Shown here: positions 3,218 to 25,088 of the stretch, one piece after another | How positions within the stretch are numbered: position 1 is the stretch's first letter | Layout: each line of letters begins with the position of its first letter | Assembly: GCA_963820555.1 (NCBI GenBank) | Contig: CAWGAT010000047.1 | Coordinates: forward strand, 33,982-97,981 | Direction of reading: 5' to 3' | Length of the DNA stretch: 64,000 nucleotides | From: Candidatus Bathyarchaeota archaeon | GTDB taxonomy: Archaea > Thermoproteota > Bathyarchaeia > TCS64 | Notes under the pieces: generated by a model | Database searches by the model: none | Seen by the model: the letters and a program-made list of their open reading frames with translations, nothing else | Told to the model about the DNA's origin: nothing | Translations under genes and position numbers: made by a program

Positions 3218-3785
3218 ATGAAGAAGACCTGCGGCTGGGGCACCGACGACCCCCTGATGACGGCTTACCACGACGAGGAGTGGGGGGTCCCCGTCCACGA
3301 CGACCGACTTCACTTCGAGTTCATAGTCCTCGAGGGCGTCCAGGCGGGACTCAGCTGGCGCACCGTCCTCCACAGGCGCGACGCGTACCGCGAGGCCTAC
3401 CACAACTTCGACCCCAAGAGGGTCGCTGCCTACACCGAGGCCGACGTGGAGAGGATCATGGACCACCCCGGCATCATCCGCAACCGCAGGAAGATAGAGG
3501 CAGCCATAAAGAACGCCCGCGCCTTCCTGGAGGTCCAGAAGGAGTTCGGCACATTCGACAGGTACATCTGGGGCTTCGTCGGGGGAAAGCAGAGGGTCAA
3601 CACCTACACGAGCTTCAAGGAGATGCCCGCGGAGACGGAGGAGAGCCGCGCCATGAGCAAGGACCTCAAGAAGACGGGGCTTCACCTTCGTCGGCCCAAC
3701 AATCTGCTACGCCTACATGCAGGCCGCTGGCCTGGTAAACGACCACCTGACAAAGTGCTACCGTTGGAAGGAGGTGCAGAAATGA
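3218..3785 (+). CDS. tag: DNA-3-methyladenine glycosylase I (Tag), with an apparent 1-nt frameshift near 3675
   Basis: CGWGTDDPLMTAYHDEEWGVP ... FEFIVLEGVQAGLSWRTVL is diagnostic for Tag. The C-terminus only reads correctly (GFTFVGPTICYAYMQAAGLVNDHLTKCYRWKEV*) after dropping one base in aagaagacgggg. The ORF track's 272 aa product runs on in the wrong frame. Confidence 0.75.
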
Positions 3786-4679
3786 AGCTATTCGACGAGT
3801 TACTCAGGCCCGTCCCCGAGCTTTTCTTCGAGAAGTCGGGGGAACCCGAGGACGCCGACTATCATACTCTTCGGGGCACCCCTCGACAGGACCGCCTCCT
3901 ACAGGGGCGGGAGCAGGTTCGCCCCCACCGCCATCAGGGAGGCGAGCCAGTACATGGAGAGCTACAGCGTCAGGACGGGCCTCGACTGGGAGGACCTGAA
4001 GCTCGTTGACATCGGTGACATCGCCGACGTAGGGGAGGTCGAGCCCGCCGTCGAGAACATCAGGAGGGTCGTCGAGGAGATCAAGGCGCTGGGTAAGCTC
4101 CCAGTTATGCTGGGGGGCGAGCACACGATCACCCTCGGCGCCCTCCGCGCCCTCCACCCCGAAGCCGTCGTCGTCTTCGACGCCCACCTCGACCTCAGGG
4201 ACACACTATTCGAGGAGAGGCTCTGCCACGCCACCTACCTGCGCAGGGCACATGAGGAACAGGGATTCAGGCTAGTAATCGTCGCGGCGCGCGCCCTCTC
4301 CGCGGAGGAGATAGAGTACGCCGAGGAGAAGGGTGTCACCGTCGTCACGGCGCAGGACGTGAAGAGGTTCGGCGTCGAACCCGTCCTCGGAATGATCAGA
4401 GACTCCCTAGAGGGCGTCGAGTCCGTCTACCTGAGCGTCGACATGGACGCCGTCGACCCCGCCGAGGCCCCCGCAGTGGGCAACCCCAGCCCAGAAGGCA
4501 TAGGAGTCACCCAGCTGCTCGACCTAATCGCCGGCGTCGTCGACAAGCGCCTCGTCGGCTTCGACCTGAACGAGGTCTCCCCCAGCTACGACTCGGGCTT
4601 AACCGCGATCCAGGCCGCCTACATCGTCCTCGAGACCCTCTACATGGCCGAGAGGGCACGACGCGGCTACCCCTCATAG
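3782..4679 (+). CDS. speB: agmatinase/arginase-family ureohydrolase, with an apparent 1-nt frameshift near 3856
   Basis: The downstream frame gives IILFGAPLDRTASYRGGSRFAPTAIREASQYMESYS ... GGEHTITLGA ... DAHLDLRD ... SVDMDAVDPAEAPAVGNPSPEGI ... GFDLNEVSP. These are the metal-binding motifs of the arginase family. The N-terminal 25 aa (MKLFDELLRPVPELFFEKSGEPEDAD) are in another frame. Confidence 0.75.
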
Positions 4680-4733
4680 CCCATATATCCCAGCGAGTCG
4701 AAGTCTACGCGATGGCGGCTCCCGACTTCAATA

Positions 4734-7281
4734 ATGGACGAGGGCGAGGAGGAGATAAGGCCGAAGGGGCGTCTGGCCCCCGAGAACCTGCCCACGAGCT
4801 ACCTCCTCAGCGCGGGCTACGACGGCGCGGAGCAGAAGGCGTACCTCCGCCTCTACGAGCCCGTGAGCCAGCAGGTCTACCTCTGGTACGACAACACGAG
4901 CCACCTCCCCTACTGCATAAGCAGGGAGCCCATCACGGAGCTGGAGAAGAACCAGCGCCTCCTCCGCCACGAGGGCTACTTCTTCATGGAGGAGGTCAAG
5001 AAACACGACCCCCTCGCAGACAAGGAGATCAAGGTCACAAAGGTCGTCGCCAAGGACCCCCTCAGCATCGGCGGAGGCAGGGGCCAGCCCATCAGGAGCA
5101 TCATCGGGGACAGCTGGGAGAGCCGAATCAGGTACTACCAGTGCTACATCTACGACCGCGAACTCATCACCGGGATGCCCTACAGGGTGGAGAACGGCAA
5201 CCTCGTCGACGCCGGCTACACCCTCGACGCGGAGACGGAGGCGAAGATCGACGCCATCCTGGAGAAGATCGAGCCCGAGTTCAGGGGCAACATGAAGGAG
5301 TGGACCCGCCTCCTCCAGTGCCCCGTCCCCAAGCTGCGGCGCGTCGCCGTCGACATCGAGGTCCGCCCAAGCGTCCAGAACAGGCTCCCCAACGCCGACG
5401 AGGCGACAGGAGCCCATAACCGCCGTCGGATTCTCAGCCAGCGACGGCTTGCGCAGGATAATCGTCCTCAACGACACCGGCCACGATGTACCGACACCCG
5501 GTCATCCTCGGCGCGGAGGTTAAGGTCTACACCGACGAGCGCGACATAATCAGGGACACCTTCAAGGTCCTAGACGAGTACCCCGTCGTCCTCACCTTCA
5601 ACGGTGACGACTTCGACTTCCGATTCCTACGCAACAGGGCGAAGAACCTCGGCATCCCCGACTCCGAGAACCCCATAGTCATGGGGCGCCGCTTCGCCTT
5701 CCTCAGAAACGGCGTCCACCTCGACCTCTACAAATTCTTCATGAACAGGAGCATACAGGGCTACGCCTTCGGCAACCGATACAGGGAGAACACCCTCAAC
5801 GAGATATCCAAGAGCCTCACTCAACCATGGAGAAGCTCGCAATCGGCGACATCATGGCGGCGAACATGCAGGACCTCGCCCAGTACTGCCTCAACGACTC
5901 CGACCTCACCTACCAGCTCACAGCCTTCAACCACGACCTCGCCATGAACCTCATAGTCCTCCTCACCCGCATCAGCAAGATGATCATGGAGGACGTCACC
6001 CGTAACGGCGTCAGCAGGTGGATACTCTCCCTCATGGAGTGGGAACACAGGCACCGGGGCTGGCTCATCCCCAACACGCAGGACATCCTCGACGTGAAGG
6101 GGCAGACCAGCACCACCAGCATCATCAAGGGGAAGAAGTACCAGGGCGCCATAGTCAGGGACCCGAAGCCCGGCGCCCACTTCGGCGTCATCGTCTGCGA
6201 CTTCGCCAGCCTCTACCCCAGCGCTATCAGGAACTGGAACCTAAGCTACGACACCATCCTCTGCAACCATCCCGAGTGCAGGGATAACCTTGTCCCCGGG
6301 ACCCCCCACTGGGTCTGCAAGAAGAACCGCGGCATGGCGAGCCTCATCATTGGAAGCCTTCGCGACCTCAGGGTCCAGTGGTACAAGCCCCGAAGCAGAG
6401 ACAAAGCCCTAAGCGTCGAGGAGCGCCAGTACTACGACGTCGTCACCCAGGCCCTCAAGGTCTTCCTGAACGCCAGCTATGGGGTCTTCGGCTCCGAGAG
6501 CTTTCCCCTCTACTGCCCCCCGCTGGCGGAGAGCACAGCAGCCGTCGGCCGCTACGCCATGACCAAGGCCGTCGATAAAAGCCAGCAACTAGGCATAGAG
6601 GTCATCTACGGCGACACGGACTCCGTCTTCCTCGAGAAGCCGTCGAAGGAGCAGATTGACGGCCTCGTTAACTGGGCCGACGCCGAGCTCGGCATCGACC
6701 TTGACGTCGACAAGCAGTACCGCTACGCCATATTCAGCAGCCGGAAGAAGAACTACCTCGGCGTCTACCCCGACGGCAAGCTCGACATAAAGGGGCTGAC
6801 GGGGAAGAAGCGGCACATCCCCCCCATCCTCAAGGACGCCTTCGTCAAACTCACCACCATCCTCAGCAACGTCGATGGGCCCGAGGAGTTCCCCGACGCC
6901 AAGGAGGAAATCAGGAACCTCGTCACCACCATCAACCACCGCCTCAAGAACCGCGAATTCGCCATAGAGGAGGTCGCCTTCAGCATGATGCTCGGCAAGG
7001 GCCTCGCAGGCTACGACACCACGCCCCAGCACGTCAAGGCGGGCAGGATGCTCGAGGAGCAGGGATACGAGCTCAAGGAGGGGGACATAATCAGCTACGT
7101 CGTCACAAAGGACGGCGTCAAGCCCGTCCAGATAGCGGGGAAGAAGGACGTCGACATAAACAAGATGGAGGAGTACCTCGAGGGCACATTCGAGCAGGTC
7201 CTCGACGCCCTCGACATGAGCTTCGACGAACTCGTCGGGCGCCCACGCCAGACGGGACTCGGCGCATTCTTCACACGCTAG
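4734..7281 (+). CDS. polB: family B DNA polymerase (archaeal PolB) split into three overlapping-frame pieces by frameshifts
   Basis: Piece 1 (4734..5549) has Exo I (VAVDIEV). Piece 2 (5486..5947) has Exo II (LTFNGDDFDFRFL). Piece 3 (5827..7281) has the polymerase motifs including YGDTDS. The pieces overlap in different frames, so this is indels rather than an intein or a natural split. At least two +1 shifts lie between 5400 and 5500 and one near 5825. Confidence 0.8.
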
Positions 7282-9775: not shown

Positions 9776-9860
9776 TGTAACCTCTTAACAATTATTGGAA
9801 AAATTTATAAAAATATAGAATTCATTTTAACTGGAGAGTGATTTATTTTTATGGATATTA

Positions 9861-10208: not shown

Positions 10209-10209
10209 A

Positions 10210-11247: not shown

Positions 11248-11383
11248 GGGTAGTTCCGTTCACGTGGGGTAAGGAGCACTGTCTAGTGCTTAAGACATCG
11301 ACGAAACTGAATTCTACGAATTTTTGAATACATTTAACGAGTTCATATCGAAGGTCATCGATAACTCAGATGGCGATCATAGT

Positions 11384-11773
11384 TCAACTAACTTGGTTTA
11401 TTACGACTTTCGTTTCCTCAGGGAAATCGCGCATCAGGCTATCCAGCAGCGTCTCAGTTATGAATCGCTTGAAACCAGTCTCGTCTAGGGATGGATAATA
11501 GACCCAGTGATGGCCGCCCTTACCCGTCTTCTCCTCACCCGAGATCACTCCCATCCCCCGCATAGCCTCCAAGAAGTTGATGATGCTGGCTCTGGAGATG
11601 GTCTCGCCTTTGAGAGCTTGGTTCACCTTAATCCAGACCGTTCTACTATTAGCACCCTCCAGAGAAGACCAGACAATCTGCATTGCCTTGAGTTGCCAGT
11701 TCTTCAGAACAGCATTGAAGCCTGTTTGTGACGTGTCGTATTCGAATCCGTTCATCACTCTGATCATATTCAC
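11384..11773 (-). CDS. winged-helix transcriptional regulator (BlaI/CopY/MarR-like fold)
   Basis: 129 aa. KAMQIVWSS ... SRTVWIKVNQAL ... ISRASIINFLEAMRGMGVI ... HHWVYY follows the wHTH pattern of small penicillinase-repressor-like regulators. Confidence 0.45.
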   Translation of the reverse strand: MNMIRVMNGFEYDTSQTGFNAVLKNWQLKAMQIVWSSLEGANSRTVWIKVNQALKGETISRASIINFLEAMRGMGVISGEEKTGKGGHHWVYYPSLDETGFKRFITETLLDSLMRDFPEETKVVINQVS

Positions 11774-11980
11774 AGCTATCTTTTAACATTTTTTCCAAAT
11801 TCACTCAGAGAGTTATCAAAATTCTTAACATGAAGGGAAAAACAAGCCCCTCCTCTTTGTGTAGAGTCGAGTCGTGGGTTGTGTAGACAATTGAGATATT
11901 CTCAGAGGGCTTGAAGTCGCGCGCTGGGGCGTTTAGAAATTATTTAAGCGTGTACGCCTCTTGAACACCGCTGATGTAGA

Positions 11981-12766
11981 ATGGAGTATAAACAAATCAA
12001 GGTAAGCAAAGATGAACAAGTGGGCGTCATCACAATCGATGCCCTACCGCAGAACGACTTCAGCAAGAGGATGATCGTGGAGATACTCGACTGCCTCGAC
12101 AACTTCGAGAGGGACGACGAGGTCCGGGCGGTCATGCTCAAGAGCACGGGGCCGAACTTCTCCCAGGGCGCGGGCGTCGAGGACCTCGACAAGGACATAG
12201 TGGAGGGGGTGACCGACACCCCGTTCTCGGAGCTGGGTGGCAGGATCGTCGAGAGGATCGACTGCTACCCGAAGCCGACCCTCGTCGCGGCCCGGGGCAT
12301 CTGCTTCGGAGGCTCCACCGCCGTCTTCAGCGCCTTCGACATCAGGATAGTCGGGGAGACCTTCAACATCCACGACGGCGACATCTACTACGGGATCGTC
12401 GGGTCCTGGGGAATGTGCAGCCTCCGGCTGCCGATTTGGATTGGTAGGAACAAGGTGCTGGACTACATGTTCCTCAACGAGGGCTTCACGGGGAGGCAGG
12501 CATACGAGCTTGGGCTGGTCAGCAAGGTCGTGCCGGACGACCAGGTCGACGAGATTGGCCTCGCCATCGCTAAGAAGATGTCCACCGCCGCGCCCGTCGC
12601 CGCGAGGTACTTCAAGGAGTGCGTCCGAAACACACTATACTCCCACCTCGCGGAGGCCCGTGCGAAGGAACTTGAGGCGTCGAAAATAGTCTGGGCCACC
12701 GAGGATGCCAAGGAGGGCCTGGCGAACGTTATCAGGGGAAAGAAGACCGTCTTCAAGGGCAGATGA
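11981..12766 (+). CDS. enoyl-CoA hydratase/isomerase (crotonase) family protein
   Basis: 261 aa with the crotonase fold: VGVITIDALPQNDFS ... oxyanion-hole region SQGAGVEDL ... CFGGSTAVFSAFDIRIV. Confidence 0.75.
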   Translation: MEYKQIKVSKDEQVGVITIDALPQNDFSKRMIVEILDCLDNFERDDEVRAVMLKSTGPNFSQGAGVEDLDKDIVEGVTDTPFSELGGRIVERIDCYPKPTLVAARGICFGGSTAVFSAFDIRIVGETFNIHDGDIYYGIVGSWGMCSLRLPIWIGRNKVLDYMFLNEGFTGRQAYELGLVSKVVPDDQVDEIGLAIAKKMSTAAPVAARYFKECVRNTLYSHLAEARAKELEASKIVWATEDAKEGLANVIRGKKTVFKGR

Positions 12767-13067: not shown

Positions 13068-13655
13068 GTGCTTCTGCATAAATATCTGGAGAAACTCCTG
13101 GGATCCAAGGCCAAAGTGAAGATACTAAGAGCCTTACAACGCCACAGAGGCAAAGAGTTCACCGTGCGTGAGCTCGCAGATTACATTAATATCTCCCACA
13201 CAGGCGTCCATAAAGCCCTCATTGACTTATATGACATGAACGTGATCACCCTCAAATCTGTCGGAAAATCCCACACGGTGACCCTAAACGAGGAAAGCCA
13301 TACGAGGGACCTGTTAGAATACCTATTCAAATTCGAGGAGGAGACCCTAAGAGCGCTCCAGAGTCTTATAAATAATTACCTCTGTAGCCAACCTAATATT
13401 AGTTCAGCCGCAATATTCGGAAGCGTTGCTCGCGGAGAAGAGGAACCTCGAAGCGACATCGACCTCCTGATACTATCAAATGACAGGGAAAAAGCGGAAG
13501 TGGCAGTCTCAGAGCTTCAAGTTGAGGTCTCCAGAAAGTTCGGGAACCCCCTAACTACATACATCATAACTAGAGAGGAGCTGGAAGGGAGGAAAATACC
13601 TTTAATGAAAGAGATACAGGAGCAACACATCATGATCTGCGGCGAAACTCTGTAG
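13068..13655 (+). CDS. fusion of an N-terminal winged HTH and a minimal nucleotidyltransferase (MNT, Pol-beta-like) domain
   Basis: N-terminus: AKVKILRALQRHRGKEFTVRELADYINISHTGVHKALIDL (wHTH). C-terminus: IFGSVARGEEEPRSDIDLLIL (the GS-x-ARG ... DxD nucleotidyltransferase signature). Sits in an AT-rich island. No cognate HEPN partner ORF was found. Confidence 0.7.
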   Translation: MLLHKYLEKLLGSKAKVKILRALQRHRGKEFTVRELADYINISHTGVHKALIDLYDMNVITLKSVGKSHTVTLNEESHTRDLLEYLFKFEEETLRALQSLINNYLCSQPNISSAAIFGSVARGEEEPRSDIDLLILSNDREKAEVAVSELQVEVSRKFGNPLTTYIITREELEGRKIPLMKEIQEQHIMICGETL

Positions 13656-13949
13656 TAGACGTAATGTCAATAAAAACTAGGAAAGTGGAGCATGGACTAT
13701 ATACTAAGTCTGTTGACGTCTACATAGTATTTATATAGTTGTTATATGCCAACGCCGGAATTTGTTAATAATTAAGGTTCTTCGGACTTCGTCAGATTCG
13801 TTATAATGTTAAAACTTGGTGAGTGTCATAACTACATGGATCGGATTTCTTAGGGCTAAACGGGAAGACCCCAGTTGAGGCTTGCAGAATCGAGGTCAAG
13901 GGAGATAACAAGTGGAAGATATTAATTCAAAACGCAAAGAAGACCAATT

Positions 13950-14573
13950 TTATATATGTATAAGTCCTTTCTCTTTCGCTATTTGAAGTAGTTCATCTAT
14001 ATCCTTTATGGGAGCCATTAAGGCAAATTCTCCCCAATGCCATAAGCCCTTTTCATGTGTTTGGGTTCTATACCCAAACCGCAACTCCTTTCTACCATCA
14101 TCCCATAGTAATTCTTCTATCAAAATGATTTTATCGATAACATTTGTCTGTTGTCCCCAAACGACTTTATTTATTTTGAAGTGAACCCGATCTTTTCTAG
14201 ACCTACCCTTTGGGACAATCCCACCTTCGAGCTTGAGACGAAGCGTTTTACCTGCTCTATCCTTTATCGGTATCTCTCGAACCCTATCCTCTTCAGAAAA
14301 ATAACCATTAATCATATCATATTCTATAATACTACCATTTCGGTTAACATTTGCTTTTCAATCAACCGAAAGGTAACAGCCCAACAAAACAGTCTGATCA
14401 ACCGAAGAGGTAACAGAACCCTCATATCTAGGTTCATCCCGAAGAATTTTGACATGAAGATAAATCCGACGAAGACTTGACAGAACCGCCCATTACCTTC
14501 GCAACTTCGTTGACTATCTCATCGATAGAACTTGATCCACCCAGATTCCGTAATGCCTGAAGGACGGGATTCA
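13950..14573 (-). pseudogene. decayed gene with an Mrr_N-like N-terminal wHTH fragment (47 aa) and a 121 aa C-terminal ORF, separated by a stop and a frameshift
   Basis: The minus strand 14573..14433 encodes MNPVLQALRNLGGSSSIDEIVNEVAKVMGG, which resembles the Mrr N-terminal DNA-binding domain. After a stop and frame changes the reading continues into the 13950..14315 ORF (MINGYFSEEDRVREIPIKDRAGKTLRL ...). No intact catalytic domain was recognised. Confidence 0.35.
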
Positions 14574-14774
14574 TGAATTTATCGTAAGAAGGAAGACTCG
14601 GCGTCGTATCCCCACCTATACTATATTGTTGGTTTCAATAGGATATTTAAAATAATTTTAATTCAATATGCTTAACGGTTCAAATTAAAAATGCTTTATT
14701 TTGAAGAAGACCCTTTTAAAAAGTGTGACTTTTCACATAAAATATTTTTCTCTTAAAAATTATATCATATGAAA

Positions 14775-15587
14775 TTACTCATAAATAATATCACCATCAC
14801 GCGTAGTTATAGTCATTTTAATCAACCCTTGATAAACTAATTCATTTAGAGAATCTTTTACATCCATTTCTTGATATGACTTTTTTGGATTGCTAGACTT
14901 AAGTATATTTGTCCAGTCATTAATAGTTCCACTAAATTGAGTTTCATCTTTTTTATTTAATATAGTATTTCTCAAACTTGGATTATAAATATTTTTCAAT
15001 GTTTTAAAACAATATAAAAGAACTAGGATCGAAGTGATCCAAATTGCCATATGATAATAAGGCGTTTGTCTATCAAGAATAACTATTTTATTATCCCAAA
15101 AAATGAAATATTTTACAAAATCTAAGTATAGTCCCATAGAACCATAAAACGATATAGATAAAACACCGCTACTAACTGCCACTCGGAATAAAATATGTTT
15201 CCACCAACTAAAAACGTCTCTCTTCTTTATTGCATAATAAGAACATAACAATATGGGAGCAAGGCTAATAATTAATGCAGTAATAGCTTCAATATATTTT
15301 TCTAAAATAATTAGAATGATAAACTGTATTAACAAACCAGCAGAAACCGAAGCTAAATTCGAAACGATTTCTTTTCGCTTCATTGAGATCTCAAAAAATG
15401 GTTTTAATAATTCTTCATCACATTCTCTACAAAGTCTTCGTTTTGGAAAACTTCTCATCGTTGTAACAAATTTTTTAAGAGGAGCAACCGCAGGTTCGAT
15501 AAAAAGCTCGTCAGTTCCCCATGCAAAAAAACTAAAAAATAGACCTAAAACTCCAGTTACAATACCTGAAAAAAGGAACGCGTCCAT
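14775..15587 (-). CDS. hypothetical polytopic membrane protein with a cytoplasmic C-terminal domain
   Basis: 270 aa, ~5 predicted TM helices, low GC (~33%). No recognisable motifs. Confidence 0.4.
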   Translation of the reverse strand: MDAFLFSGIVTGVLGLFFSFFAWGTDELFIEPAVAPLKKFVTTMRSFPKRRLCRECDEELLKPFFEISMKRKEIVSNLASVSAGLLIQFIILIILEKYIEAITALIISLAPILLCSYYAIKKRDVFSWWKHILFRVAVSSGVLSISFYGSMGLYLDFVKYFIFWDNKIVILDRQTPYYHMAIWITSILVLLYCFKTLKNIYNPSLRNTILNKKDETQFSGTINDWTNILKSSNPKKSYQEMDVKDSLNELVYQGLIKMTITTRDGDIIYE

Positions 15588-15621
15588 TATGTTCTATAGA
15601 TTTAACTAGAAATAATATTTA

Positions 15622-15840
15622 TCATTTTTCTTTTTTATCTTTCTTGAACAGGTGCCAATTGAAATCCTTCAAATATTGATCCCAAACTACATCGGAAACT
15701 ATGAGAAGACCGGGAATGATACCTATGCCAACAGCAATATTATTCGTAATACTAACTGCCTGTATACCTAATGAAATTATGCCAAAACCAAATAAAAGTA
15801 AAATAAGACCGATCACCCACTTTCCCGGTTCTTTGTGCAA
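15622..15840 (-). CDS. hypothetical small 2-TM membrane protein
   Basis: 72 aa with two hydrophobic helices and a KKDKKEK tail. Co-directional with and upstream of 14775..15587, likely the same operon. Confidence 0.35.
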   Translation of the reverse strand: MHKEPGKWVIGLILLLFGFGIISLGIQAVSITNNIAVGIGIIPGLLIVSDVVWDQYLKDFNWHLFKKDKKEK

Positions 15841-16211
15841 TATTATCCCCTCGACCTTAGGGAACTTATAGGAAAAATATAACGGAGCTTTAATATATAT
15901 TTTATTCTTAGTATGTGATAATTTTCAAAAAAATTCACCTTTTCTCGAATGGTGGTAATAAAACGTGTTAACATTGAAACGCGTGTTCCAAAGTAATTTG
16001 GGGAGAATAACTTAAAAAAGGAAAAAATTTAGATCGAGCTGGTTGAAGAGATAGCTTTATATAATTGTTGTTATGGATGCACCCACTTTTTTGGTGGGTC
16101 TAGTGCCGCACATTGTTTCTATTTCTAGTGAGGAAAACGATGGGCTCAGCATCGGCGTCACTAGGCGGTTCCTCGGGCGCCGAGCTGATCCCCAGGTCAA
16201 ATGGGTGAAAC

Positions 16212-16541
16212 GTGATGGAGCTCGAAGCAACGATAATGGGCCACAGGGTCACCTTCCGAAGCTGGACGTACGGGAAGAAACAGGATGCTATGCGAAGGGC
16301 GACCAGTTGGAGGAAGGAGCCCGACGGGGGCTTGGTCCCGGACGTTGACCCGTGGCTCCTCAACGACCTGATGCTGGCGGCGACGGTCGCTGAGTGGGAC
16401 CTAAAGGGGCCGGATGGTAGCCCCCTCCACGTGTCCGTCGAGTCCATTCGGGGGATTGAGCCGCCGGAGCTCGTTGAGCAGATGATCGAGTTCACCCAGA
16501 GGCTTAACGGTGTCACTCGGGAGGAGAGAAAAAAATCATGA
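16212..16541 (+). CDS. hypothetical virus-like protein
   Basis: 109 aa. First ORF after the GC jump and co-directional with the tail-like genes. No confident motif. Confidence 0.3.
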   Translation: MMELEATIMGHRVTFRSWTYGKKQDAMRRATSWRKEPDGGLVPDVDPWLLNDLMLAATVAEWDLKGPDGSPLHVSVESIRGIEPPELVEQMIEFTQRLNGVTREERKKS

Positions 16542-16753
16542 TGGCTGTGAAGCGCGGTAAGCCTGAGCCACTTCTGGAGGATGTTTCGCTCTGCGCTCGC
16601 TTGGGCTGGACCCTAGACCAACTGAGGCGTCAGCCTGCAAGGTTCGTTGAGGTTCTTAGGGTCTACCTCGGGGCACTGGACGACGTGCAGAGCCGTGAGA
16701 ACAGGCGCCTGACCGAGGAATTCGAAGCGAAGATGCGGAGGCTTCACCCTTGA
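16538..16753 (+). CDS. hypothetical virus-like protein
   Basis: 71 aa. Its start overlaps the stop of the previous ORF (ATGA), and its own stop overlaps the start of the next ORF. Confidence 0.3.
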   Translation: MMAVKRGKPEPLLEDVSLCARLGWTLDQLRRQPARFVEVLRVYLGALDDVQSRENRRLTEEFEAKMRRLHP

Positions 16754-17130
16754 TGATAACTAAGGCAATAAGATTTGGGGACCTGGGATTAGAGCTTAGG
16801 TTACTCCCAACCAGAGTCGGTGAGGCCTCAAAACAATCCCTAAGCCTCGACCGCATGGTCTTAATAGCGAAGTCCTACTGCCCCATCGACACCGGAGCCC
16901 TGATGGCCTCGATCCGAGCAGAAATGCGCGGACCCCTAGAAACGGCCCTGATCGCGGGCGGAGGAGGATACGTTAACCCCAGAACCCTAAAACCTGTAGA
17001 TTACGCGAAAAACGTCCACGACGGTACGAGCCGCATACCACCCCGACCCTTTCTCCTCCAGGCAATCCTCGCCGAGCGGCTCAGGCTCGCACAGGAGATC
17101 ATTGAACGGAGTGGAGGGCTGATGTCGTAA
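16750..17130 (+). CDS. HK97 gp10-like tail-completion / head-tail joining protein
   Basis: 126 aa. SYCPIDTGALMASIRAEM matches the conserved V-P-x-D-T-G-x-L-(R/K)-x-S-I motif of the HK97-gp10 family. Confidence 0.5.
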   Translation: MMITKAIRFGDLGLELRLLPTRVGEASKQSLSLDRMVLIAKSYCPIDTGALMASIRAEMRGPLETALIAGGGGYVNPRTLKPVDYAKNVHDGTSRIPPRPFLLQAILAERLRLAQEIIERSGGLMS

Positions 17131-17744
17131 TGGAGACCAGCCTAGTCTACACGGTCTCTGTCACCGGCCTAGACCAGGTTAAAGCACAGGCGGATTCAGC
17201 CGCGAAGAGTGCAGACCTCGCCTCGAATAGTGTCAGGGGCCTTCAGGGAGAGGGCCTCAGGACCATGCCCCTGGTGATGAACGCCCTCCAGACGGTGAAC
17301 TCTCTCCACAGTAGCGTGGAGAACGCCACGAAGGCGCTTCAGACGATGAACCCGGAGGCGATGATCTACGCCCTCCTAAGCATGATCAGCGTCGCCACCA
17401 ACCTGATGCAAATCATGAGACTCCTGAGGGAGTCCACAGCCACCGCCGCCGCTGCCCAAGCAGTCCTCGACACCCTGATCGGAGCCTGGTGGCTGATACC
17501 CCTCGCAATTACTGCTGGAGTGATGGTTGCGTCGAGTGTCCGCTCTATGCAGACAGGGGGACTCATCCATGAGACTGGGACGTATCTCCTCCACAGGGGG
17601 GAGTACGTCGTACCCGCCAACAACACGGCCAACTACGGCCCCTTCTACGTCTCCTTCACGGGCGGCCCTCAGGGCCTCGACGTGGAGGGGTTCCTGAGAG
17701 AGCTTGGCCCGAGCCTCACGAGGCGGATCAGGAGGACTGCCTAG
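17130..17744 (+). CDS. coiled-coil plus 2-TM protein, tape-measure-like or internal virion protein
   Basis: 204 aa. N-terminal heptad-rich region, two hydrophobic helices (IYALLSMISVATNLMQI and WWLIPLAITAGVMVASSV), Ala-rich linker. Confidence 0.3.
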   Translation: METSLVYTVSVTGLDQVKAQADSAAKSADLASNSVRGLQGEGLRTMPLVMNALQTVNSLHSSVENATKALQTMNPEAMIYALLSMISVATNLMQIMRLLRESTATAAAAQAVLDTLIGAWWLIPLAITAGVMVASSVRSMQTGGLIHETGTYLLHRGEYVVPANNTANYGPFYVSFTGGPQGLDVEGFLRELGPSLTRRIRRTA

Positions 17745-19000
17745 ATGACGCTAGCCCCCTCGCCCACTTGGGCTCAATGCCACATCGAGGTTCACGAGGC
17801 GCCCGGTTGGCTCGACGACTGCTTCAGGTCGACTTTATGGACCAAGTTCCGGAGCGCTGACTCCGAGAGCTTCGCCAACGCAAACGACATAGCAGGGGAC
17901 TACGCAACAATGGCGGTCACTGAGGGCGACGTAGTCAACGGCTGCGGGTGGCAGAAGGACATCATTGGCCTCGCCCTAAACACGTCGAACTACCCGAGCC
18001 TACGAGTCCGCCTCAGGGGTAGGGGGACTTCACCTCAATATCAGATTGAGGTGGAGATGAGTGACAGCACAATCGATGCGTCAGGTTGGTGCGACGCCCC
18101 AACGGGGTTCGAGGCGAGGACCCTTAACCTCACCCCCGGCAAGACCGTCAAATACGTAAGACTCTACGCCCGATTCATCGACACCCCTCGCCTCAGCCCA
18201 GATCGACTACGACTACGCCGTCATTCAGGCCCAGCCGCCACTGATCCCATACGAACACCTGAGGTCGACGTGGAGCTCCAGCACACCATCGCTAGCTCCG
18301 GCTTCAGGGTCAGATGCTGGCACGACATCCTCCAGGGCGTCACCGCCCGCAGCTATACGATTCGAGGAGGGCTCAGGCATCAAGGCCTACGACCTGAGCG
18401 GCAACCGAGGGCCACGGAACCCTCGTCAACTCGCCCACATGGGTCGCAGGTGCAGCCACGGCGGAGGTCTCCAGTTCGTCGGCTCCTCTTCGCAGAGAGT
18501 CGACACAGGGTACCTCCCCACAATCCCAGCGTCAGGGGCCCTGAGCATCGCCTCTGGGTCAAGGGCATCGAGTGGGGCTACAGGCGTCATCGTCGGCTCA
18601 GGGAAGGTGCCTGGCGGGTCGTTCAACAGGCTCCAACTCAACTTCCAGTCAACGGATAAGGTCAGGCATCTACGTCAAGGACGACGCTGGCAACATCCGG
18701 CAGTACACATCGACAAGACGATCTGCGATGACACTTGGCACCACGTCGTCAGCCGTCGTGGACCCCGCCAACGACGTCGTCACCCTCTACGTGGACGGCA
18801 TATTCGACGGGCAGGCATCGGGAGCCCTCGGGGCAATCACCCTCGATGCCCTACGACTTCACATTGGGCTGCCTCCATAACGAGGCTGGCTACACGCAGC
18901 TCATGCGACATGCTTCCTCGACGAGGTGGCATTCTACGAGAAGGCTCTGACCTACGATGAGGTCCTGACATCTTCAGGAGGGATCCACCCTCGGGGATAA
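17745..19000 (+). pseudogene. frameshifted large tail-fibre or receptor-binding-like protein with a LamG/concanavalin-like domain
   Basis: Three overlapping frames (17745..18659, 18439..18960, 18572..18880) together encode DDTWHHVV ... VTLYVDGIFDGQASGA. The W-H-H-V ... L-Y-V-D-G pattern is typical of LamG domains. Confidence 0.35.
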
Positions 19001-19075
19001 GCGGGGCGTCCTGTGGCGCATGGGTGATGATCTACCTGGCCGCGGAGCCGGAGAGCCTGGTCTACAAGCTGATCA

Positions 19076-20500
19076 GTGGAAGGGTGCTCGAACGCGTACA
19101 TGGGCGGCGACCCCGATGGGCCCTGGATTGAGCTCAGCGGCGAGGACCAGAGCGAGATCGTCCACGAGAGGATCTGGAGCCGGGAGTTCACGAGCCCGAC
19201 CCAGATCAGCACCGTAGCGGGGTACGTCGTGGACGATGCCGTGGACGAGCTCTACCGGGACATCGACGCCACGAACAGGACGATAGTCAACAACTTCAGG
19301 AACGAGAACGCCTGGAGCGTCCTCGGCAAGCTGGCGGAGAGTGCATCCTTCGCAACCGGCGAGAGCGGCGCTCACTTCTTCGTGGACCCCGGCGGCTGCT
19401 TCCGGTTCCGGAAGTACGGCGCCTTCGCCTGCCCACACCATCATCTCGGACGGCAGCGACGGCTACCCGCCGAACATCATGGACATCGAGGCCACGGAGA
19501 GCATCAAGGGCTCGCCCAGCCTCGTCAACGACGTGAAGGTGGTGATCTTCGAGGAGGAGAACATACCTAGGGATCGAGGACGGTTGGACGGAGTGCGCCG
19601 GATGGCTGGAGCAGCCCGGACCCAACGGACTCGGCTATCCCCTAGAGCGAGGCAGTTGACAAGGTAAGGGGACTACGCCTCCGTCAAGTTCCAGACGACG
19701 AACCCGGGCCCAGTCTACAGGATGCGCCTCTCCTTCTCGGAGCAGGACCTAACCGGATTCGACTCGGTCAAATTCAGCCTCAAGTACGGGTCAGGGCTCA
19801 GCATCGACTCCTTCACGTTCCAGATAATGAAGGGGAGGCTTCGGAGCCGGCGACTACTATGAGATCACAGGCGATGTATCTCCCCCGGGAGCCGACGCCT
19901 GGCATGAGATAACGATCAACCTCGCCGATATGAGCAGGATCGGCAACCCAGGCAACATCGTTAACAACCTCGAGCTGAAGGCCGTACCACGTCCACCGAG
20001 ATCGGGATCGGCGGCTTCCTCATCGACCATCTAAGATTCATCCGCAGCGAGAAGTCGGGAAGCGCCTCAGACTCGGCGAGCCAGCTCACCTACGGGAAGC
20101 GGAGCCTCACCATCGTCGACAAGGGCATAACCAGCACAACCTACGCAGGCTACGTCGCCTCGAACATCGTCGCCAACCGAAAGAACCCAGTGGCCACACT
20201 CGGAGTAACGGTGCCTGGACGCGGTCAGCCCGGCTATAGACCACCCCAGAGCGTCACCGTGACGAGCCTCAAGGACGGGATAAGCTCAAGGGCCTTCCAG
20301 ATCGTGAAGGCTAGGCACAGGATACACAGCCGGGGAGGGCTACACCTGCGAACTTGACCTCGTCGCCGCCAAGACCGCGGGAAGCCCCCCGCTTACTCGG
20401 AGCTGGTCTGCCCGAGCCTCAACGATCTCCCAACTCTCCTCGGCGAGTGGAGGAGGCGGCTGCAGGGGGAGGCACTGAACAGCCTCAGGAGTGAGTGGAT
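19076..20500 (+). pseudogene. frameshifted tail-fibre or carbohydrate-binding-module-like protein(s)
   Basis: My own translation finds long open stretches in alternating frames, for example DYASVKFQTTNPGPVYRMRLSFSEQDLTGFDSVKFSLKYGSGLSIDSFTFQI and GDYYEITGDVSPPGADAWHEITINLADMSRIGNPGN. This is the beta-sandwich CBM-like composition seen in virus fibres. Confidence 0.3.
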
Positions 20501-20916
20501 ATGAAGAACGATGAAAAAGCATCCGAGGGATCCGAAGCGGATCCCCTACGGAACGAACGAAGGTAGTCGAGGGCCTTGAGAAGGGGGACCTCGTCGTCGT
20601 GAGGTGGACGGACGCGAGCGACCGGAAGGCGCCCCTGGAGGAGCACATCGGGGACCCGAGCATCTACTGCAAGGACTGGGGGATATACCTCGGCGTCACG
20701 GGCGCACGAGCGACGTTCATACTCATCGGGAAGGACATCGTCGAGGTCCACAACGAGTGGGGGGCGACCAGGATACCGCTGGAGCTCGTCGAGGAGGTGA
20801 TACGGTGTCCTACCCGAGAACAAGTCGTGAGAAGAATTCGGGAGATTCAGGTCCTCGGCGGAAGGGTGCGCCTCAGGAAGAGGAGGAGGGAGGTAAAGGT
20901 TGTTAGAGTGGCTTAA
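20501..20916 (+). CDS. hypothetical protein (frameshifted N-terminus)
   Basis: ATG at 20501, then a frame change into the 105 aa ORF 20599..20916 (RWTDASDRKAPLEEHIGDPSIYCKDWGIY ...). Confidence 0.25.
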
Positions 20917-20984
20917 GGAGAAGCTAACGAAGACGATGGTTCAGGCGGCGCCCGGAGGAGCGCCGCATAAGGGTAGTCGAGGAC

Positions 20985-21160
20985 GTGCCCAGCGACAGAT
21001 TCGTCCTACTAGTCGCACTCATGGTCATATTCTTCGCGGGTCTCATAGCCCTCGAGGTGGCGCACATGGTCGTCTTCGGCGCAGTGGAACGAGGCCGTCT
21101 TCAACGGCGTCATGCTGATCGTCGGCACCATCGTCGGCGCCGTCTGGGGGAGGAGCGAGG
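20985..21160 (+). CDS. small 2-TM membrane protein (holin-like topology), frameshifted
   Basis: FVLLVALMVIFFAGLIALEVAHMVVFGAVE, then after a frame change AVFNGVMLIVGTIVGAVWG. Two hydrophobic helices in ~60 aa. Confidence 0.25.
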
Positions 21161-21161
21161 C

Positions 21162-21850
21162 ATGATCAGCGCGAGGGTCAGGCCCCGCCGCTACGACTCC
21201 GAGCGGGGCTGCTACGTCTACGACGTCAGCATTCAGGACGAAGACCAAGATCACGGAGCGCACCGCTAAGGTGGCGGAGGCCTTCGGCCTAGGCATCGAC
21301 GAGGAGAGTGAGCAGTGCTCCTCAGGGGCTTCGAGCTCAGGCTGGTGGAGGGGGACATCGTCTACATAACCGGCGAGTCCGGATCCGGCAAGTCGGTGCT
21401 GCTCAGGGCCCTGCAGCGAGGACCTGGGAGACCGGGCCGTGGACATCGCCGAGGTCACGGTGGACGCCTCAAGCCCATCGTGGACACCGTCGGCTCCAGC
21501 TTCCCGGAGGCGCTGGGGCTCCTCAGCCGGGTGGGCCTCAACGACGCCTACCTGTTCCTCCGCAGGTACCACGAGCTCAGCGACGGGCAGAAGTACCGGT
21601 ACCGGATCGCCAGGATGGTCGACTCCGGCAAAAGGTTCTGGCTCGCCGACGAGTTCTGCATCGACCCTCGACAGCACCACGGCCAAAGTCGTCGCCTACA
21701 ACATACAGAAGCAGGCGAGCCACAGCGGAGCCACCCTGGTCGTGGCGACGAGCCACACCGACCTCGAGGAGGACCTGGCCCCCTCCGCCCTCATCAGGAA
21801 GGGCTGGGGCGACGAGGTAAAGGTCGAGTACAGGGAGAACAGGGAGGCAC
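21162..21850 (+). CDS. stand-alone ABC-type ATPase (Walker A, ABC signature, Walker B, H-loop), at least 3 frameshifts
   Basis: Walker A is ITGESGSGKSVLLRAL. The ABC signature LSDGQKYRYRIARMV is a variant of LSGGQ. Walker B is RFWLADEF. The D-loop/H-loop VVATSH appears in the next frame. Pieces are spread over ORFs 21315..21869 and 21439..22605. Confidence 0.5.
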
Positions 21851-21939
21851 CGGAGTGCACGGCCGATAAGAGGCATAACCATACCGAGAGGGCACGAAGG
21901 AGGACTACGCCCGGCTCAGCTAGCCTCCACTACAGGGAC

Positions 21940-22708
21940 AGCCGCCTACCCGTCCCGATGAAGATCTACGCCGCGCGCCGCGGCGACGAGCTTGTCGGCG
22001 TCATCGCCTACAGCTACCCCGGAGTCAACGCCCAGGGAGGAGGCTCGCCGTCGGCTAAACCGCCCCACCCTCGAGGAACTCAACAGCGACTGGGCCGTCA
22101 TAAGCCGCGTCATCGTCCACCCCAAGTACCGAACAACCGGCCTCGGCGCCCGACTCCTCCGCGAAACGCTGCCCCTAGTTGGGCGCCGCCACGTGGAGCT
22201 CATCGCGGTGATGGCGGAGTACAACCCCTTCGCCGAGCGAGCCGGCATGACCCTCATCCACCAATCAACCCCCGATCCCACCGTCACCGCCGCCATCAAA
22301 GCCCTCCGAACACTCGGCTTCGACCCCTTAACCCTAACAAGCCAAGCCCAGAACAAACGAACACTGGAATCCCTTTCCCCCGAGGACCTAGAGGAGGTCC
22401 GCCGGATCCTCCTAAGCGTACACAGCGTCTACTACAAGCGCATCGGCAGCACCGACAGCGCCTACACCCGCCGCCCAGAGATGAAAGCCTGGCTCAGCAA
22501 ACAGGGACCAGCCCGTCTCTCAGTGAGCCTCAAGGCCCTCGCCGTGCTCGGCCAATCAAAGGCCTACCTCTATTGGAGCAGCCAAAATCAAATCGAGGAG
22601 GGTGAAATTCCCAGCCACAGCTGTAAAAATATTTTTTTTCGCAAATACCCTCCTACTGGGAAATTCGAGTACCCCACTGGGAATTTGCCGGCCCAAAACG
22701 GGGGGTGA
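21940..22708 (+). CDS. GNAT-family N-acetyltransferase domain protein (frameshifted)
   Basis: ELVGVIAYSYPG (beta-strand before motif A), then in the next frame VISRVIVHPKYRTTGLGARLLRE, the canonical GNAT motif A (R/Q-x-x-G-x-G/A). Confidence 0.45.
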
Positions 22709-22930
22709 ATGTTCTCGAGGAGCTACATTTTCACTGAGAATGAGAGGAGGAGACTGAAGGCTTGGCTGGAGAGCGACGTAGAGGACAACCAAACCAAAAA
22801 ACTCTTCACAGGAGTGAGGCGGGGCCTCACCCCGATAAAGCGAGACATGGAACTAAAAATCGCGGCGCGCCTGATGGCACACACCTCCGATTTTCGAGCC
22901 CCGACACATAAACTCTCCGGAAGAATTTAG
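22709..22930 (+). CDS. hypothetical small protein
   Basis: 73 aa, basic, no motif. Weak call. Confidence 0.2.
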   Translation: MFSRSYIFTENERRRLKAWLESDVEDNQTKKLFTGVRRGLTPIKRDMELKIAARLMAHTSDFRAPTHKLSGRI

Positions 22931-23356: not shown

Positions 23357-25088
23357 TTAGCACTCGGGGAGGATCACGTCGAGTAGGGCGTGTTTACCCT
23401 TTTTCACCTGCCGCAGGGCTCTGAGTAGGGCGGGCTTGACCTCGGAAGGATCCGTGATCTCCTCCCCGTAGCCACCGAAGGACTCGGAGAGCTTGGCGTA
23501 GTCGGGCTTCGGCTTCGCGTAGACGCCGTAGATCCTCCCGCTGCATATGGCGTGCCCCTTAGGGTAGTAGCGTGGGTGGTGCTTCATAGCGGCATAGCCC
23601 TGGTTATCGTATATCACTGTGAGGATGGGGATGGCGTACTCCTGGGCGAGGCCAAGGCAGGCGTGAACGGGATTGTAGTTGAAGCTTCCATCCCCCTCAA
23701 GGGCGATGACGGTCTTATCCGGGGCGGCGAGCTTTGCGCCGAGGGCGACGCCTAGACCTTGTCCAAGCCCCGTATGGGCGACGGGACCCGTGGCCTCGAG
23801 CTGCGACCCTGGCACGGTTCGGTGGCGCTCGATGTGTTCGAAAATCATCGTACTGTGGCTGATGGTCTCATGGACGAGAATCGTGTCTTTATCCACGACC
23901 TCGTCTATGCAGTGGCTGAGCCACAGTCGGGCTGATAGGACACTGGTCCTTTGTGGAGAGGGCTGCCTTCCTCCATTCCTCCCTGAGGCGTTTATGTTCC
24001 GCTCCCCAGCGCGTTAGCCGATCCTCCACCCGCTTGCCGAGGCCCCGCACCCTAAGTACTTCAGCAACGAGCGCGGGTAGGGCGATGCTCGAGTCGGCGG
24101 CTATTAGGAGGTCGGCGGGATAACCGTAGACAGGGTACTTCACCTGCAAGGGATCGAGGTCCAAGAAGACTATCTTGGCTTTGCTCCTATCGGTGATGCT
24201 GTTGGGTGGATACCATGGTGGCCACCCGTTTGCGTCGATGACAAGGATGAGGTCTGCGTCCGCGAGGTAATTACCCATACTGGGGCCCATGTGTAGTGGG
24301 TTATCGGTGGGGTAATTGGCATAGCCGGGTGTCTCGAAGACCGGCGCTCCGACCAACTCCGCCAGCTCGACTAGGGATGCGACCGCGCCCTGGTTTCTCC
24401 CGAGGTAACGGGTGTAGATTAGGGGGTTCTCCGCTTTCGCTAGCATCCCCGCCAACTTCCTCAGTGCCTCTGGGTCCGCCTGAACCCGCGAGGGCCTCGG
24501 GTTCGGGTAGGGCACCCTCATCTTCTCCTTCTTCTCGAAGAGTAACTCCCGGGATAGAGAGAGCATCACGGGCCCCTTGATGTCTGTAGAAGCAATGTCG
24601 AGGCCCCTAACCATCGTGGAGAGGATGTTAACGTTCGACTCGGGGGTGTCCACCCACTTCATATAGGGCTGGACGAGCCTCTGCTGCCCCCCGACCTCGG
24701 TGAACGAGAGGTAGTGGGGTCCGGGCGTCCCGCCATAGACCTCTTCGTCGTGGGTCCTCGCCTCACCGACGAGCAGCATGAGGGGTATCTGGTCGGTGTA
24801 CGCCGCCTTGAGCTCCATCGCGCCGTGGAGCATCCCCGTGAGGACGTGCGCCATGAGGACCTGAGGCCTCCCCGTCACCATGTAGTAGCCCTTAGCGAGA
24901 GAGACGGAGAGCCCCTCATGTCTCGTGTTCATGTAGAGGGGCTTCTTCCCCGCCTCGTTGTACTTCGCAAGGTACTCCCAGATTGGGACGAACTCCGTCC
25001 CAGGCGAGCTGAAGACATAGTCCACACCGTATTGGTGGAGAACTTCGACATAGCCCTCCGCCGCGCCCTCGACACTAATCTCTTTCAA
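23357..25088 (-). CDS. thiamine-pyrophosphate enzyme (acetolactate synthase large-subunit / sulfopyruvate decarboxylase-like), frameshift near 23890
   Basis: The N-terminal 399 aa hold the TPP-enzyme Pyr domain (GVDYVFSSPGTEF ... ) and the central domain. The C-terminal 179 aa, in a different frame, hold the TPP-binding motif ALEGDGSFNYNPVHACLGLAQEYAIPILTVIYDNQGY. Confidence 0.7.

Follow-up and report, generated by a model that had tools for sequence, protein, structure and literature searches.

A probable fragment of an integrated head-tail virus in a Bathyarchaeia archaeon, with frameshifts that most likely reflect consensus errors

The window, by which we mean the whole 64-kb stretch of DNA analyzed here, carries a viral fragment of ~6.9 kb that comprises a tail-distal gene set only, with all genes on the plus strand from 16.2 to 22.9 kb. 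An earlier note on this DNA had described a co-directional block of ~6.6 kb ending at 22710; the orientation is borne out from 16.2 kb onward, but the block reaches ~22930 and takes in an additional small ORF. The GC jump placed at ~16130 by the same note is real, as a step from 0.27–0.40 to ~0.60 at ~16000–16250, but it does not set the viral block apart as high-GC: the 0.57–0.62 of the block is the baseline of the window, and the step is the end of a low-GC island (~13.7–16.0 kb). This island (13700..16005, minus strand, GC 0.27–0.40), delimited by composition, adjoins the left end and lies outside the viral module. It contains three minus-strand ORFs (13950–14315; 14775–15587, multi-TM; 15622–15840, TM) and gave no matches in Pfam, PADLOC or PHROG. 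Its context is 100% identical in an independent assembly, L008, and the left flanks of two other relatives, L007 and L005, bear no relation to it. IS transposases also occur in the 64-kb window.

The left end and leader (16006..16214, plus strand) were delimited by the junction alignment of the window, L007 and L005, together with the sequence itself. Homology to L007 starts at ~16006, and because this end is common to the window and L007, whose flank differs, we regard it as the element's own end. The leader contains a TATA-like box, TTTATATAA, at 16056–16064, which from its motif may act as a promoter, and a conserved hairpin at 16081–16099 (ACCCAC-TTTTTTG-GTGGGT); GGTGA precedes the ATG at 16215. 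No att-like direct repeat above chance was found between the two junction zones.

The first gene (16212..16541, plus strand, probable ATG at 16215) encodes a tail assembly chaperone, G, of 109 aa, which matches phrog_9046 (E 3.8e-11) and is 64% identical to a 111-aa gene of L002. In more than 20 relatives, G lies directly 3' of the Phage_tube_2 tube gene. The T part of the chaperone follows as a 71-aa ORF (16538..16753, plus strand) in the −1 frame relative to G; it is 55% identical to a 70-aa gene of L002 and matches phrog_9001, 'tail assembly chaperone' (E 1.7e-3). Conservation points to a putative slippery site, A AAA AAA T (16529..16536, plus strand), for a −1 programmed frameshift that would yield a G-T fusion: 10/10 loci examined across the family have the identical heptamer at the end of G and an open −1 frame.

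The next gene (16750..17130, plus strand) encodes a 126-aa tail completion protein of the HK97-gp10-like, Neck1 type. The earlier note had recognized an HK97 gp10-family motif here, and, as far as profile matches can tell, membership of this tail-completion group holds at the superfamily level. Family members match phrog_5 in 21/21 cases (best E 2.7e-18), phrog_26 in 8/21 and PF04883 in 2/21 (5e-5), and the window's own protein matches phrog_5 (E 4.2e-5) and gave no Pfam match. In all relatives, the gene follows the chaperones and precedes the tape measure, instead of occupying the usual gp10 position between the head-tail connectors and the major tail protein.

The coiled-coil, TM-containing tape-measure-like ORF of the earlier note was also recovered, as a 204-aa protein (17130..17744, plus strand) located between the chaperones and the hub. 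It has a coiled coil, hydrophobic helices and a conserved C-terminal motif, ...QTGG..ETGxYLLHRGEYVVP. In 18/18 other IMG/VR contigs examined, this motif stands at the C-terminal end of ORFs that stay open over ≥333 aa, and the tape-measure-like family itself forms ~35 clusters, all of ~205 aa. The gene position fits a tape measure, but the length is only ~205 aa and the matches to tape-measure PHROGs are weak (E 2e-3). The family profiles of G, the gp10-like protein and the tape-measure-like protein found nothing significant among PDB sequences, and Pfam searches with the raw pieces returned almost nothing for the first six. The locus presents a chaperone pair with a predicted −1 frameshift, a tape-measure-like protein and a hub, as in a Caudoviricetes-type provirus; the roles of these proteins are proposed from homology and gene order.

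The hub, a baseplate hub or tail-tip protein with a LamG insertion, spans 17745..20504 (plus strand) and has 913 aa after frame correction. As given, the gene contains 25 out-of-frame indels, from 18173 onward. What had been described as more than 3 kb of fibre is indeed LamG-containing sequence scattered over alternating frames, ~2.8 kb in length; it is not a fibre, however, but one hub gene. The LamG domain is an insertion within the hub fold and matches lectin domains. The ~66 full-length homologues are all intact, and neither the hub nor the tape-measure-like protein had a match in the GenBank/INPHARED virus collection. Cellular surface proteins often contain LamG domains, and the distant matches to this large protein cover the LamG domain alone, as would be expected if the locus were a cellular LamG surface-protein locus and not viral. 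However, the domain is inserted in a hub fold, the gene is accompanied by those for chaperones (with a frameshift site), for a gp10-like protein and for a tape measure, and relatives bear terminase, portal and capsid genes. Both this fold and the gene order shared with terminase, portal and capsid genes rule this candidate out, and we assign it practically no probability.

Four conserved genes lie downstream of the hub. The first (20501..20916, plus strand), of the family 's108' (138 aa in L007), is 61% identical to a 108-aa gene of L002 and had no match in Pfam or PHROG; it carries a single 1-nt deletion at 20557, and its corrected translation is 81% identical to L007. The second (20900..21160, plus strand), the small 2-TM ORF that the earlier note called holin-like, encodes a conserved 87-aa protein with two TM helices and no family match. 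It matches a 92-aa gene of L002 in two frames, being broken by 2 insertions, and after correction is 87% identical to L007. The ABC-ATPase and GNAT sequences reported to follow as a pair are both present, but as a single gene (21139..22708, plus strand) for a fused ABC-type ATPase and GNAT acetyltransferase of ~490 aa. Pfam ABC_tran and Acetyltransf_1 were found on the window pieces and on the intact L007 protein, there are PHROG matches to phrog_293, phrog_11143 and phrog_886, and the gene is a single ORF of 477–650 aa in every relative checked. It contains 10 out-of-frame indels; depending on whether the deletion at 22595 is an error or real, it ends at 22605 or at 22708, respectively. PADLOC gave P-loop-level matches only (mad3, mad8, LmuB), and we do not take these as a sign of a defence role. 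The last viral gene in the window (22709..22930, plus strand) is a small conserved ORF of 73 aa, family 's77', 37% identical to a 77-aa gene of L002; in relatives, a 74-aa ORF comes next, and then the terminase large subunit (TerL).

The window is collinear, gene for gene, with L001 (an IMG/VR viral contig), L002, L004 and L007, and the consensus synteny of ~25 Bathyarchaeia loci includes Phage_tube_2, Terminase_6N/6C, Phage_portal, Phage_cement_2 and Phage_capsid_4 genes. In complete relatives, the portal, scaffold, capsid and tail tube genes lie upstream of the module and the terminase gene lies downstream. L002 and L007 run on into TerL, whereas the window does not. A tblastn search with the relatives' genes, the portal genes of L012 and L118 being left out of the queries, found no capsid, portal, terminase, tube or integrase homologues in the 64-kb window, so that the earlier statement that capsid, portal, terminase and integrase are missing stands and extends to the tube. 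There was no window match to the relatives' capsid genes (y207/Phage_capsid_4, an HK97-fold MCP present in L006, L012 and L118), nor to TerL from L002, although relatives have portal and terminase. The Phage_tube_2 gene is absent from the window, and it lies directly 5' of G in every relative outside the window's clade whose locus reaches there (>20 loci). Since portal, capsid, tube and terminase are missing from the 64-kb window, the fragment is truncated on both sides and is not a tailocin. We therefore consider it likely that 16006–22930 derives from a head-tail virus, a Caudoviricetes-type provirus, that integrated into the chromosome of a Bathyarchaeia archaeon, and that it is a truncated remnant whose frameshifts are consensus errors. 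The host assignment comes from the enoyl-CoA hydratase of the window, whose cluster, at ≥90% identity, contains proteins bearing the name Candidatus Bathyarchaeia.

The missing virus genes could lie elsewhere, since the source contig has 109 kb, of which the window covers only 64. A complete provirus would then have its terminase, portal, capsid, tube and integrase genes outside the window, or cut off by a rearrangement or assembly join near 22.6–23.0 kb. The close relative L007, with the same left end, proceeds into TerL; the low-quality patch described below stops only ~330 bp before the right junction; and there are IS transposases in the window and 45 kb of source contig beyond it. However, no viral genes were found on either side of the fragment, over 16 kb leftward and 41 kb rightward. 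Among the best 120 of 712 TerL clusters, those at 60–92% identity also included none on a contig of 109,283 bp, a weak argument given that a broken gene would escape such a listing. We regard a complete provirus as unlikely, if somewhat less so than the other alternatives to a truncated remnant.

Another possibility would be that the host retained a domesticated or tailocin-like tail cluster for its own use, as the earlier note had suggested in speaking of a captured, tailocin-like cluster. Tail genes are present in a chromosome without head genes, codon-level purifying selection is seen against L007, and in three lineages (window/L008, L007 and L005) the module begins at G, without a tube gene and with its own TATA box and leader. 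Nevertheless, a tail cannot be built without the tube gene, which adjoins G in all other relatives reaching there. L007, with the same left end, keeps TerL, so that evolution as a virus accounts for the selection signal, and no lysis or regulatory genes were recognised. Moreover, the flanks of the three G-first copies are unrelated, so these copies are not a conserved host locus. Retention by the host is thus very unlikely, and the captured-cluster claim falls with the missing tube. The tube-less, G-first module of these lineages could, for its part, be a sub-module that is maintained, or reflect another layout of the genome, rather than simple truncation.

The heavy frameshifting described for the whole block is present in the sequence as given, but it is confined to a patch at 18173..22595, with 38 out-of-frame indels (27 insertions and 11 deletions, nearly all of 1 nt). 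The 1.96 kb of 16212–18172 contain none, and this split of 0 versus 38 has P ~1e-6 under a uniform rate. A second patch (3674..5832) lies in housekeeping genes and consists of 7 window-only +1 insertions in Tag, agmatinase and PolB; all of them (7/7) are +1 insertions against four mutually concordant references, and PolB has a dN/dS of ~0.1 and no stops. The viral patch starts in the hub gene, at the point from which the window differs from L008, a near-identical strain. L008 is a mosaic that changes at ~18150 to an allele closer to L007, so it offers no check on the window's allele in the patch; in neither patch is the window's own allele spanned by an independent assembly.

A genuinely decaying provirus remnant, with the 38 frameshifts as real mutations gained after loss of function, might be expected here, since essential genes are missing and selection on the fragment should be relaxed. 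The indels do stand in the deposited sequence, and a remnant of the same family is found in another chromosome (L117). However, dN/dS is unchanged at ~0.12 (0.115–0.117 in the broken hub region, 0.125 in the intact genes, 0.114–0.136 in an intact control pair), with a value of 0.208 for three genes downstream of the hub. There are 0 nonsense substitutions in 750 hub codons, the frame-corrected genes read through cleanly, and, measured by substitutions, the broken part has not diverged further from L007 than the intact part has. Prokaryotic pseudogenes reportedly show a deletion bias; the excess of single-base insertions here is the opposite, and they are not of the slippage type, as only 5/30 inserted bases equal a neighbour. 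Nothing robust emerged as a motif around the inserted bases, which argues against programmed shift sites or methylation-linked base-calling error. In decay, dN/dS would move towards 1, nonsense substitutions would appear and deletion-biased indels would spread over the element; instead, the first 1.96 kb lack out-of-frame indels and the same pattern recurs in PolB, agmatinase and Tag. Decay, one of the two readings offered by the earlier note, thus has little probability, slightly less than a complete provirus. The 38 frameshifts are most likely consensus errors in a poorly resolved assembly stretch, although their confinement to patches would require a special assembly history, for example filling from noisy long reads. 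Were the single-base insertions real, this archaeon would have a recoding mechanism, by frameshift-tolerant translation or RNA-level correction, coping with dozens of +1 insertions in purifying-selected PolB, agmatinase, Tag, viral hub and ABC/GNAT genes. We know of no such mechanism in archaea and consider it highly improbable, more so than host retention of the cluster.

Taking the fragment as a truncated provirus remnant, its genes suggest how the intact virus might have worked. During polymerisation of the tube on the hub, the tape measure would be kept in place by the chaperones G and G-T, the latter arising from a −1 ribosomal slip at A AAA AAA T; with its ~205 aa, the tape measure would give a short tail. 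The hub, a trimer with LamG domains, would seal the tip of the tail and probably attach to a glycan on the host surface. The present fragment would be what remained after integration once everything past the small ORF at 22930 had been lost; lacking the genes for tube, head, portal and terminase, it cannot make particles. With the window and L117, truncated leftovers of the lineage are seen repeatedly in the chromosomes of Bathyarchaeia. Our analysis also gives a cleaner functional map of the lineage's tail module, with a G/G-T slippery site, an odd gp10-like position, a ~205-aa tape measure and an HFTV1-like LamG hub. In addition, it carries a warning about quality: the contig has at least 2 patches (3.7–5.8 kb and 18.2–22.6 kb) of most likely spurious single-base indels, which would give false pseudogenes, PolB included, in annotation or 'genome decay' analyses.

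Among known systems, tailocins (R-/F-type pyocins, monocin, diffocin) resemble the window in having tail genes without head genes and share the hub fold. A tailocin needs a tube, plus a sheath for the R-type, and a lysis cassette; with the tube gene absent and no recognised lysis genes, a tailocin was ruled out. The lambda/HK97-type chaperones G and G-T, reportedly linked by a conserved −1 frameshift, likewise come from a pair of overlapping ORFs, with the second in the −1 frame, located between the genes for tube and tape measure. In the window's lineage, the heptamer A AAA AAA is strictly conserved and frameshifting is predicted from sequence; unlike in lambda and HK97, a gp10-like gene stands between T and the tape measure, which has only ~205 aa. 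The window hub is like the baseplate hub of Haloferax tailed virus 1 (HFTV1; PDB 9h4p chain BD), although the sequence identity is only 13%, the host phylum differs and the LamG insertion matches lectin domains instead. Compared with the phage Mu gp44, T4 gp27 and VgrG-type hubs (1wru, 3cdd, 3d37, 6u5h), which belong to contractile systems, it is ~3x longer, with extra beta-sandwich domains, and its lineage has no visible sheath gene.

The earlier note had taken the element to be new if its host lay outside Halobacteria or methanogens, but head-tail viruses and proviruses of Bathyarchaeia have been described since 2024 (PMC10848311, PMC11705971). The 'Fuxiviridae' (Duan et al. 2024, PMC10848311) share the host class, a siphovirus-type tail, a gp10-like protein, a chaperone and a tape measure with the window, but their order according to the published annotation (gp10-like, 130-aa major tail protein, chaperone, 805-aa tape measure) differs. 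This annotation does not mention an ABC/GNAT gene. Closest is JADHWN010000002_pro, a complete 40.8-kb head-tailed provirus of the lineage from a MAG of the Bathyarchaeia order TCS64 (Xu et al. 2024, PMC11705971). L012 corresponds to 41987–62613 of the JADHWN010000002 contig, inside the published provirus coordinates. This provirus has the same gene order as the window, from G up to the small ORF that precedes TerL, and the same host class; its tape-measure-like protein is 42% identical to that of the window (tblastn), and the module proteins of L002 are 57–73% identical to L012 and 45–64% identical to the window's intact genes. It is complete, with portal, scaffold, decoration, capsid, tube and TerL genes, whereas the ~6.9 kb kept in the window lack the genes for tube, head and packaging. 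As Bathyarchaeia head-tail proviruses are documented and a complete relative is published, the fragment carries little weight as a discovery. Judged by shared gene order and detectable homology, it belongs to the JADHWN010000002_pro-type lineage, and is a new, truncated member of this already catalogued Bathyarchaeia virus lineage.

The tail-gene block at 16006-22930 carries co-directional reading frames on the + strand from 16212 to about 22930, and its frame-alternating organization had been accurately described from the sequence. The first four ORFs (16212-16541, 16538-16753, 16750-17130 and 17130-17744, all +) are uninterrupted, while the GC3 frame plot, the stop-free segments and a codon-usage Viterbi analysis all reveal that the coding phase switches every 50-350 nt from about 18170 to 22600. 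The sharp GC change near 16130 is also real (0.27-0.40 on the left, about 0.60 on the right). It does not, however, mark a jump into an atypical block: against a window baseline of 0.57-0.62, what ends there is a low-GC island (about 13.7-16.0 kb), and the composition of the block is typical of the host. This island, which extends to 16005, follows the gene of an HTH and nucleotidyltransferase protein (13068-13655; PADLOC candidate-defence families PDC-M05A and PDC-S09) and carries three - strand ORFs, of 121 aa, 270 aa (multi-TM) and 72 aa (TM), for which the libraries searched gave no homologues. The independent assembly of a near-identical strain, L008, has this arrangement too. Two transposase-like ORFs, recognized by eye (1045-2235, -; 10232-11104, +), and a serine hydroxymethyltransferase fragment (9350-9775, +), which encodes only the last ~100 positions of the Pfam SHMT profile, point to local rearrangement in the vicinity of the element.

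The earlier note proposed a tailed-virus tail module lacking head genes within an archaeal chromosome, and recommended a comparison with archaeal virus and MAG data. The proposal was right. The same genes occur in the same order in the IMG/VR viral contig L001, in the metagenome contigs L002 and L004-L008, and in the published provirus of JADHWN010000002, and the collinear relatives possess portal, capsid and TerL genes. Among species-representative genomes our scan detected 28 loci, 24 of them in Bathyarchaeia/Bathyarchaeota MAGs. The consensus order begins with portal, scaffold, decoration (Phage_cement_2), capsid (Phage_capsid_4) and small ORFs, and continues with a beta-helix/NosD protein, proteins of 128 aa and about 133 aa, and the tube (Phage_tube_2, about 293 aa). 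These are followed by G (about 110 aa), T (about 70), the gp10-like protein (about 125), the tape-measure-like protein (TMP; about 206), the LamG protein (about 907 aa), s108, s92, the ABC/GNAT protein (about 495), s77, s74 and TerL (Terminase_6N/6C). The window retains only G through s77 (16215-22927). The module, specific to Bathyarchaeia in all other respects, is also found on short contigs (about 9.6-9.8 kb) of bacterial-labelled MAGs, L014 (Candidatus Desulfaltia) and L030 (Krumholzibacteriaceae); these two strong loci are probably mis-binned, that is, binning contamination. In three further loci, L118 (13468-15568), L119 (13450-15568) and L117 (15450-17687), the provirus itself includes an HhH-GPD glycosylase gene and a methyltransferase-regulator gene of Ada/AraC type, placed after the small ORFs that follow the hub and before the ABC/GNAT gene; the two genes are DNA-repair cargo in some members of the lineage.

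The four intact ORFs have modest PHROG matches, to phrog_9046, tail assembly chaperone, tail completion/Neck1 and tape measure, and it is the gene order in the relatives that is decisive for the predicted identities. G terminates in a slippery sequence, A AAA AAA T, at which the -1 frame leads without interruption into T. This arrangement is conserved in all 10 of the 10 family loci and is a hallmark of long-tail chaperones. The profile phrog_5, annotated as 'tail completion or Neck1', is matched by all 21 members of the gp10-like family, with E values down to 2.7e-18; two of these members also match Pfam HK97-gp10_like. The C-terminal motif of the 204-aa TMP-like protein also ends long ORFs (at least 333 aa of open frame) in all 18 of the further IMG/VR contigs inspected. 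The pattern (Q/S)xGG..ETGxYLLH(R/K)GE(Y)VVP was seen in 26 viral contigs of IMG/VR (L122-L147) that are not otherwise related, close to the C-terminal end of long ORFs, and appears to be a widespread C-terminal signature of tape measures. The supposed ABC-ATPase/GNAT pair is actually a single fused gene, kept just upstream of the terminase in the lineage, and its product falls in virus-associated PHROGs. In L001 (17430-19382) this protein has 650 aa and an additional ParB-like domain at its N-terminus. Together with the position just upstream of TerL, this domain hints at a role in DNA handling or packaging and speaks against transport. The 87-aa two-TM ORF is conserved, yet a family profile search gave no match.

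The fragment is truncated. On the left, the window becomes homologous to L007, a close relative with intact genes (85% nt), from about 16006 onwards, a point that precedes both a TATA-like box and a conserved hairpin. Farther left, three unrelated flanks are seen, one in the window and L008, one in L007 and one in another relative, L005. In this clade the element itself therefore appears to end at about 16006, and the clade is alone in having no tube gene immediately before G. The hairpin, ACCCAC-TTTTTTG-GTGGGT (16081-16099), which closely follows the TATA-like box and is shared by the window, L007 and L005, may have a regulatory function in the module leader. Between the left end and the G promoter, L007 also carries a 1.17-kb insert (924-2094; GC 0.34; three small ORFs) with a 9-bp direct repeat, GTTAAAGAG, on both sides; its appearance is that of a small mobile insertion that duplicated its target site. 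On the right, L007 goes on past the small ORFs to TerL; the window leads instead to an ORF on the - strand and to a TPP enzyme. No att-like repeat common to both ends was found. The earlier note had advised looking for MCP, portal and terminase genes on the rest of the contig. Homology searches detected no tube, capsid or TerL homologues within the 64-kb window, and among the 120 clusters listed in a TerL search none was on the 109,283-bp source contig, a weak negative. The tailocin-like interpretation is rejected for the fragment because the window lacks a tube gene. A better candidate for a tail-only cluster, whether tailocin-like or a remnant, is L117 (JGI Ga0573185_41406, a 500-kb contig), in which 5365-12733 encodes NosD/beta-helix, 126 aa, 152 aa, tube, G, T, gp10-like, TMP and hub. 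This complete-looking module, with every ORF intact, is flanked by ordinary cellular genes, lacks head and terminase genes, and is another chromosomal remnant of the family (NosD through hub).

The heavy frameshifting had been read as possible decay. Relative to L007, our reference for indel and substitution counts, all 38 out-of-frame indels of the block fall in 18173-22595, and 16212-18172 is free of them (P about 1e-6 under a uniform rate). Once frame-corrected, the four broken genes read through, with 88, 81, 87 and 79% identity to L007. The dN/dS values (Nei-Gojobori) are 0.115-0.117 in the broken hub region, 0.125 in the intact genes and 0.114-0.136 in the intact control pair L005/L007. 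Substitution divergence is not higher in the broken part, and the 750 codons of the frame-corrected hub contain no nonsense substitution. Had 38 indels accumulated neutrally, about tenfold more neutral substitutions and several stops would be expected beside them. Moreover, nearly all of the indels are 1 nt, with 27 insertions against 11 deletions, and the inserted base equals its neighbour in 5 of 30 cases. Natural single-base indels mostly arise by slippage, and prokaryotic pseudogenes are biased toward deletion. The unchanged dN/dS, the lack of nonsense codons, the insertion bias and the same pattern in housekeeping genes speak against decay, and the frameshifts are most likely consensus errors. 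That the insertions are real and tolerated by recoding is very improbable; no motif common to the insertion sites was found. The fragment is thus truncated, yet not demonstrably decaying.

The housekeeping genes concerned lie in the only other patch found by the frame scan (3677-5821). This second patch (3674-5832) breaks up Tag, agmatinase and PolB, and four related metagenome contigs are intact across these genes. Against these four independent, mutually concordant contigs (85-92% nt identity), the window alone has seven +1 insertions, and PolB shows a dN/dS of about 0.1 and 0 stops; the patch is probably an assembly error. The assembly is otherwise clean, with 0 indels relative to L008 in the 5.3 kb up to 18150. 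The viral patch starts where L008 switches to a different hub allele, a place that would be the most difficult for a population-level assembly to resolve. Up to about 18150 L008 is >99% identical to the window, and beyond it the identity falls to 88%, below the 93% that L008 there shares with L007, indicating that the hub gene is mosaic among co-occurring strains. An N-terminal stretch of about 140 aa of the hub is conserved and the remainder is variable, as would be expected for a receptor-binding tail-tip protein. Separately, the TPP enzyme on the - strand (23357-25088) is divided between two ORFs, with the N and M domains in 23889-25088 and the C domain in 23357-23896, probably by another single frameshift.

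The enoyl-CoA hydratase of the window clusters at 90% identity or above with proteins named Candidatus Bathyarchaeia. The element had been considered new if its host lay outside Halobacteria and methanogens; however, a 2024 study (PMC10848311) described head-tail viruses from Bathyarchaeia, and PMC11705971 reports proviruses, among them the complete JADHWN010000002@37657-78454 (40.8 kb, predicted temperate), within which our locus L012 falls. Both the host lineage and the virus lineage of the fragment are therefore already described. Among the deposited virus genomes of INPHARED, neither the hub nor the TMP-like protein found a match. The Fuxivirus tail module, in its published layout (PMC10848311), is arranged differently from that of the window lineage.
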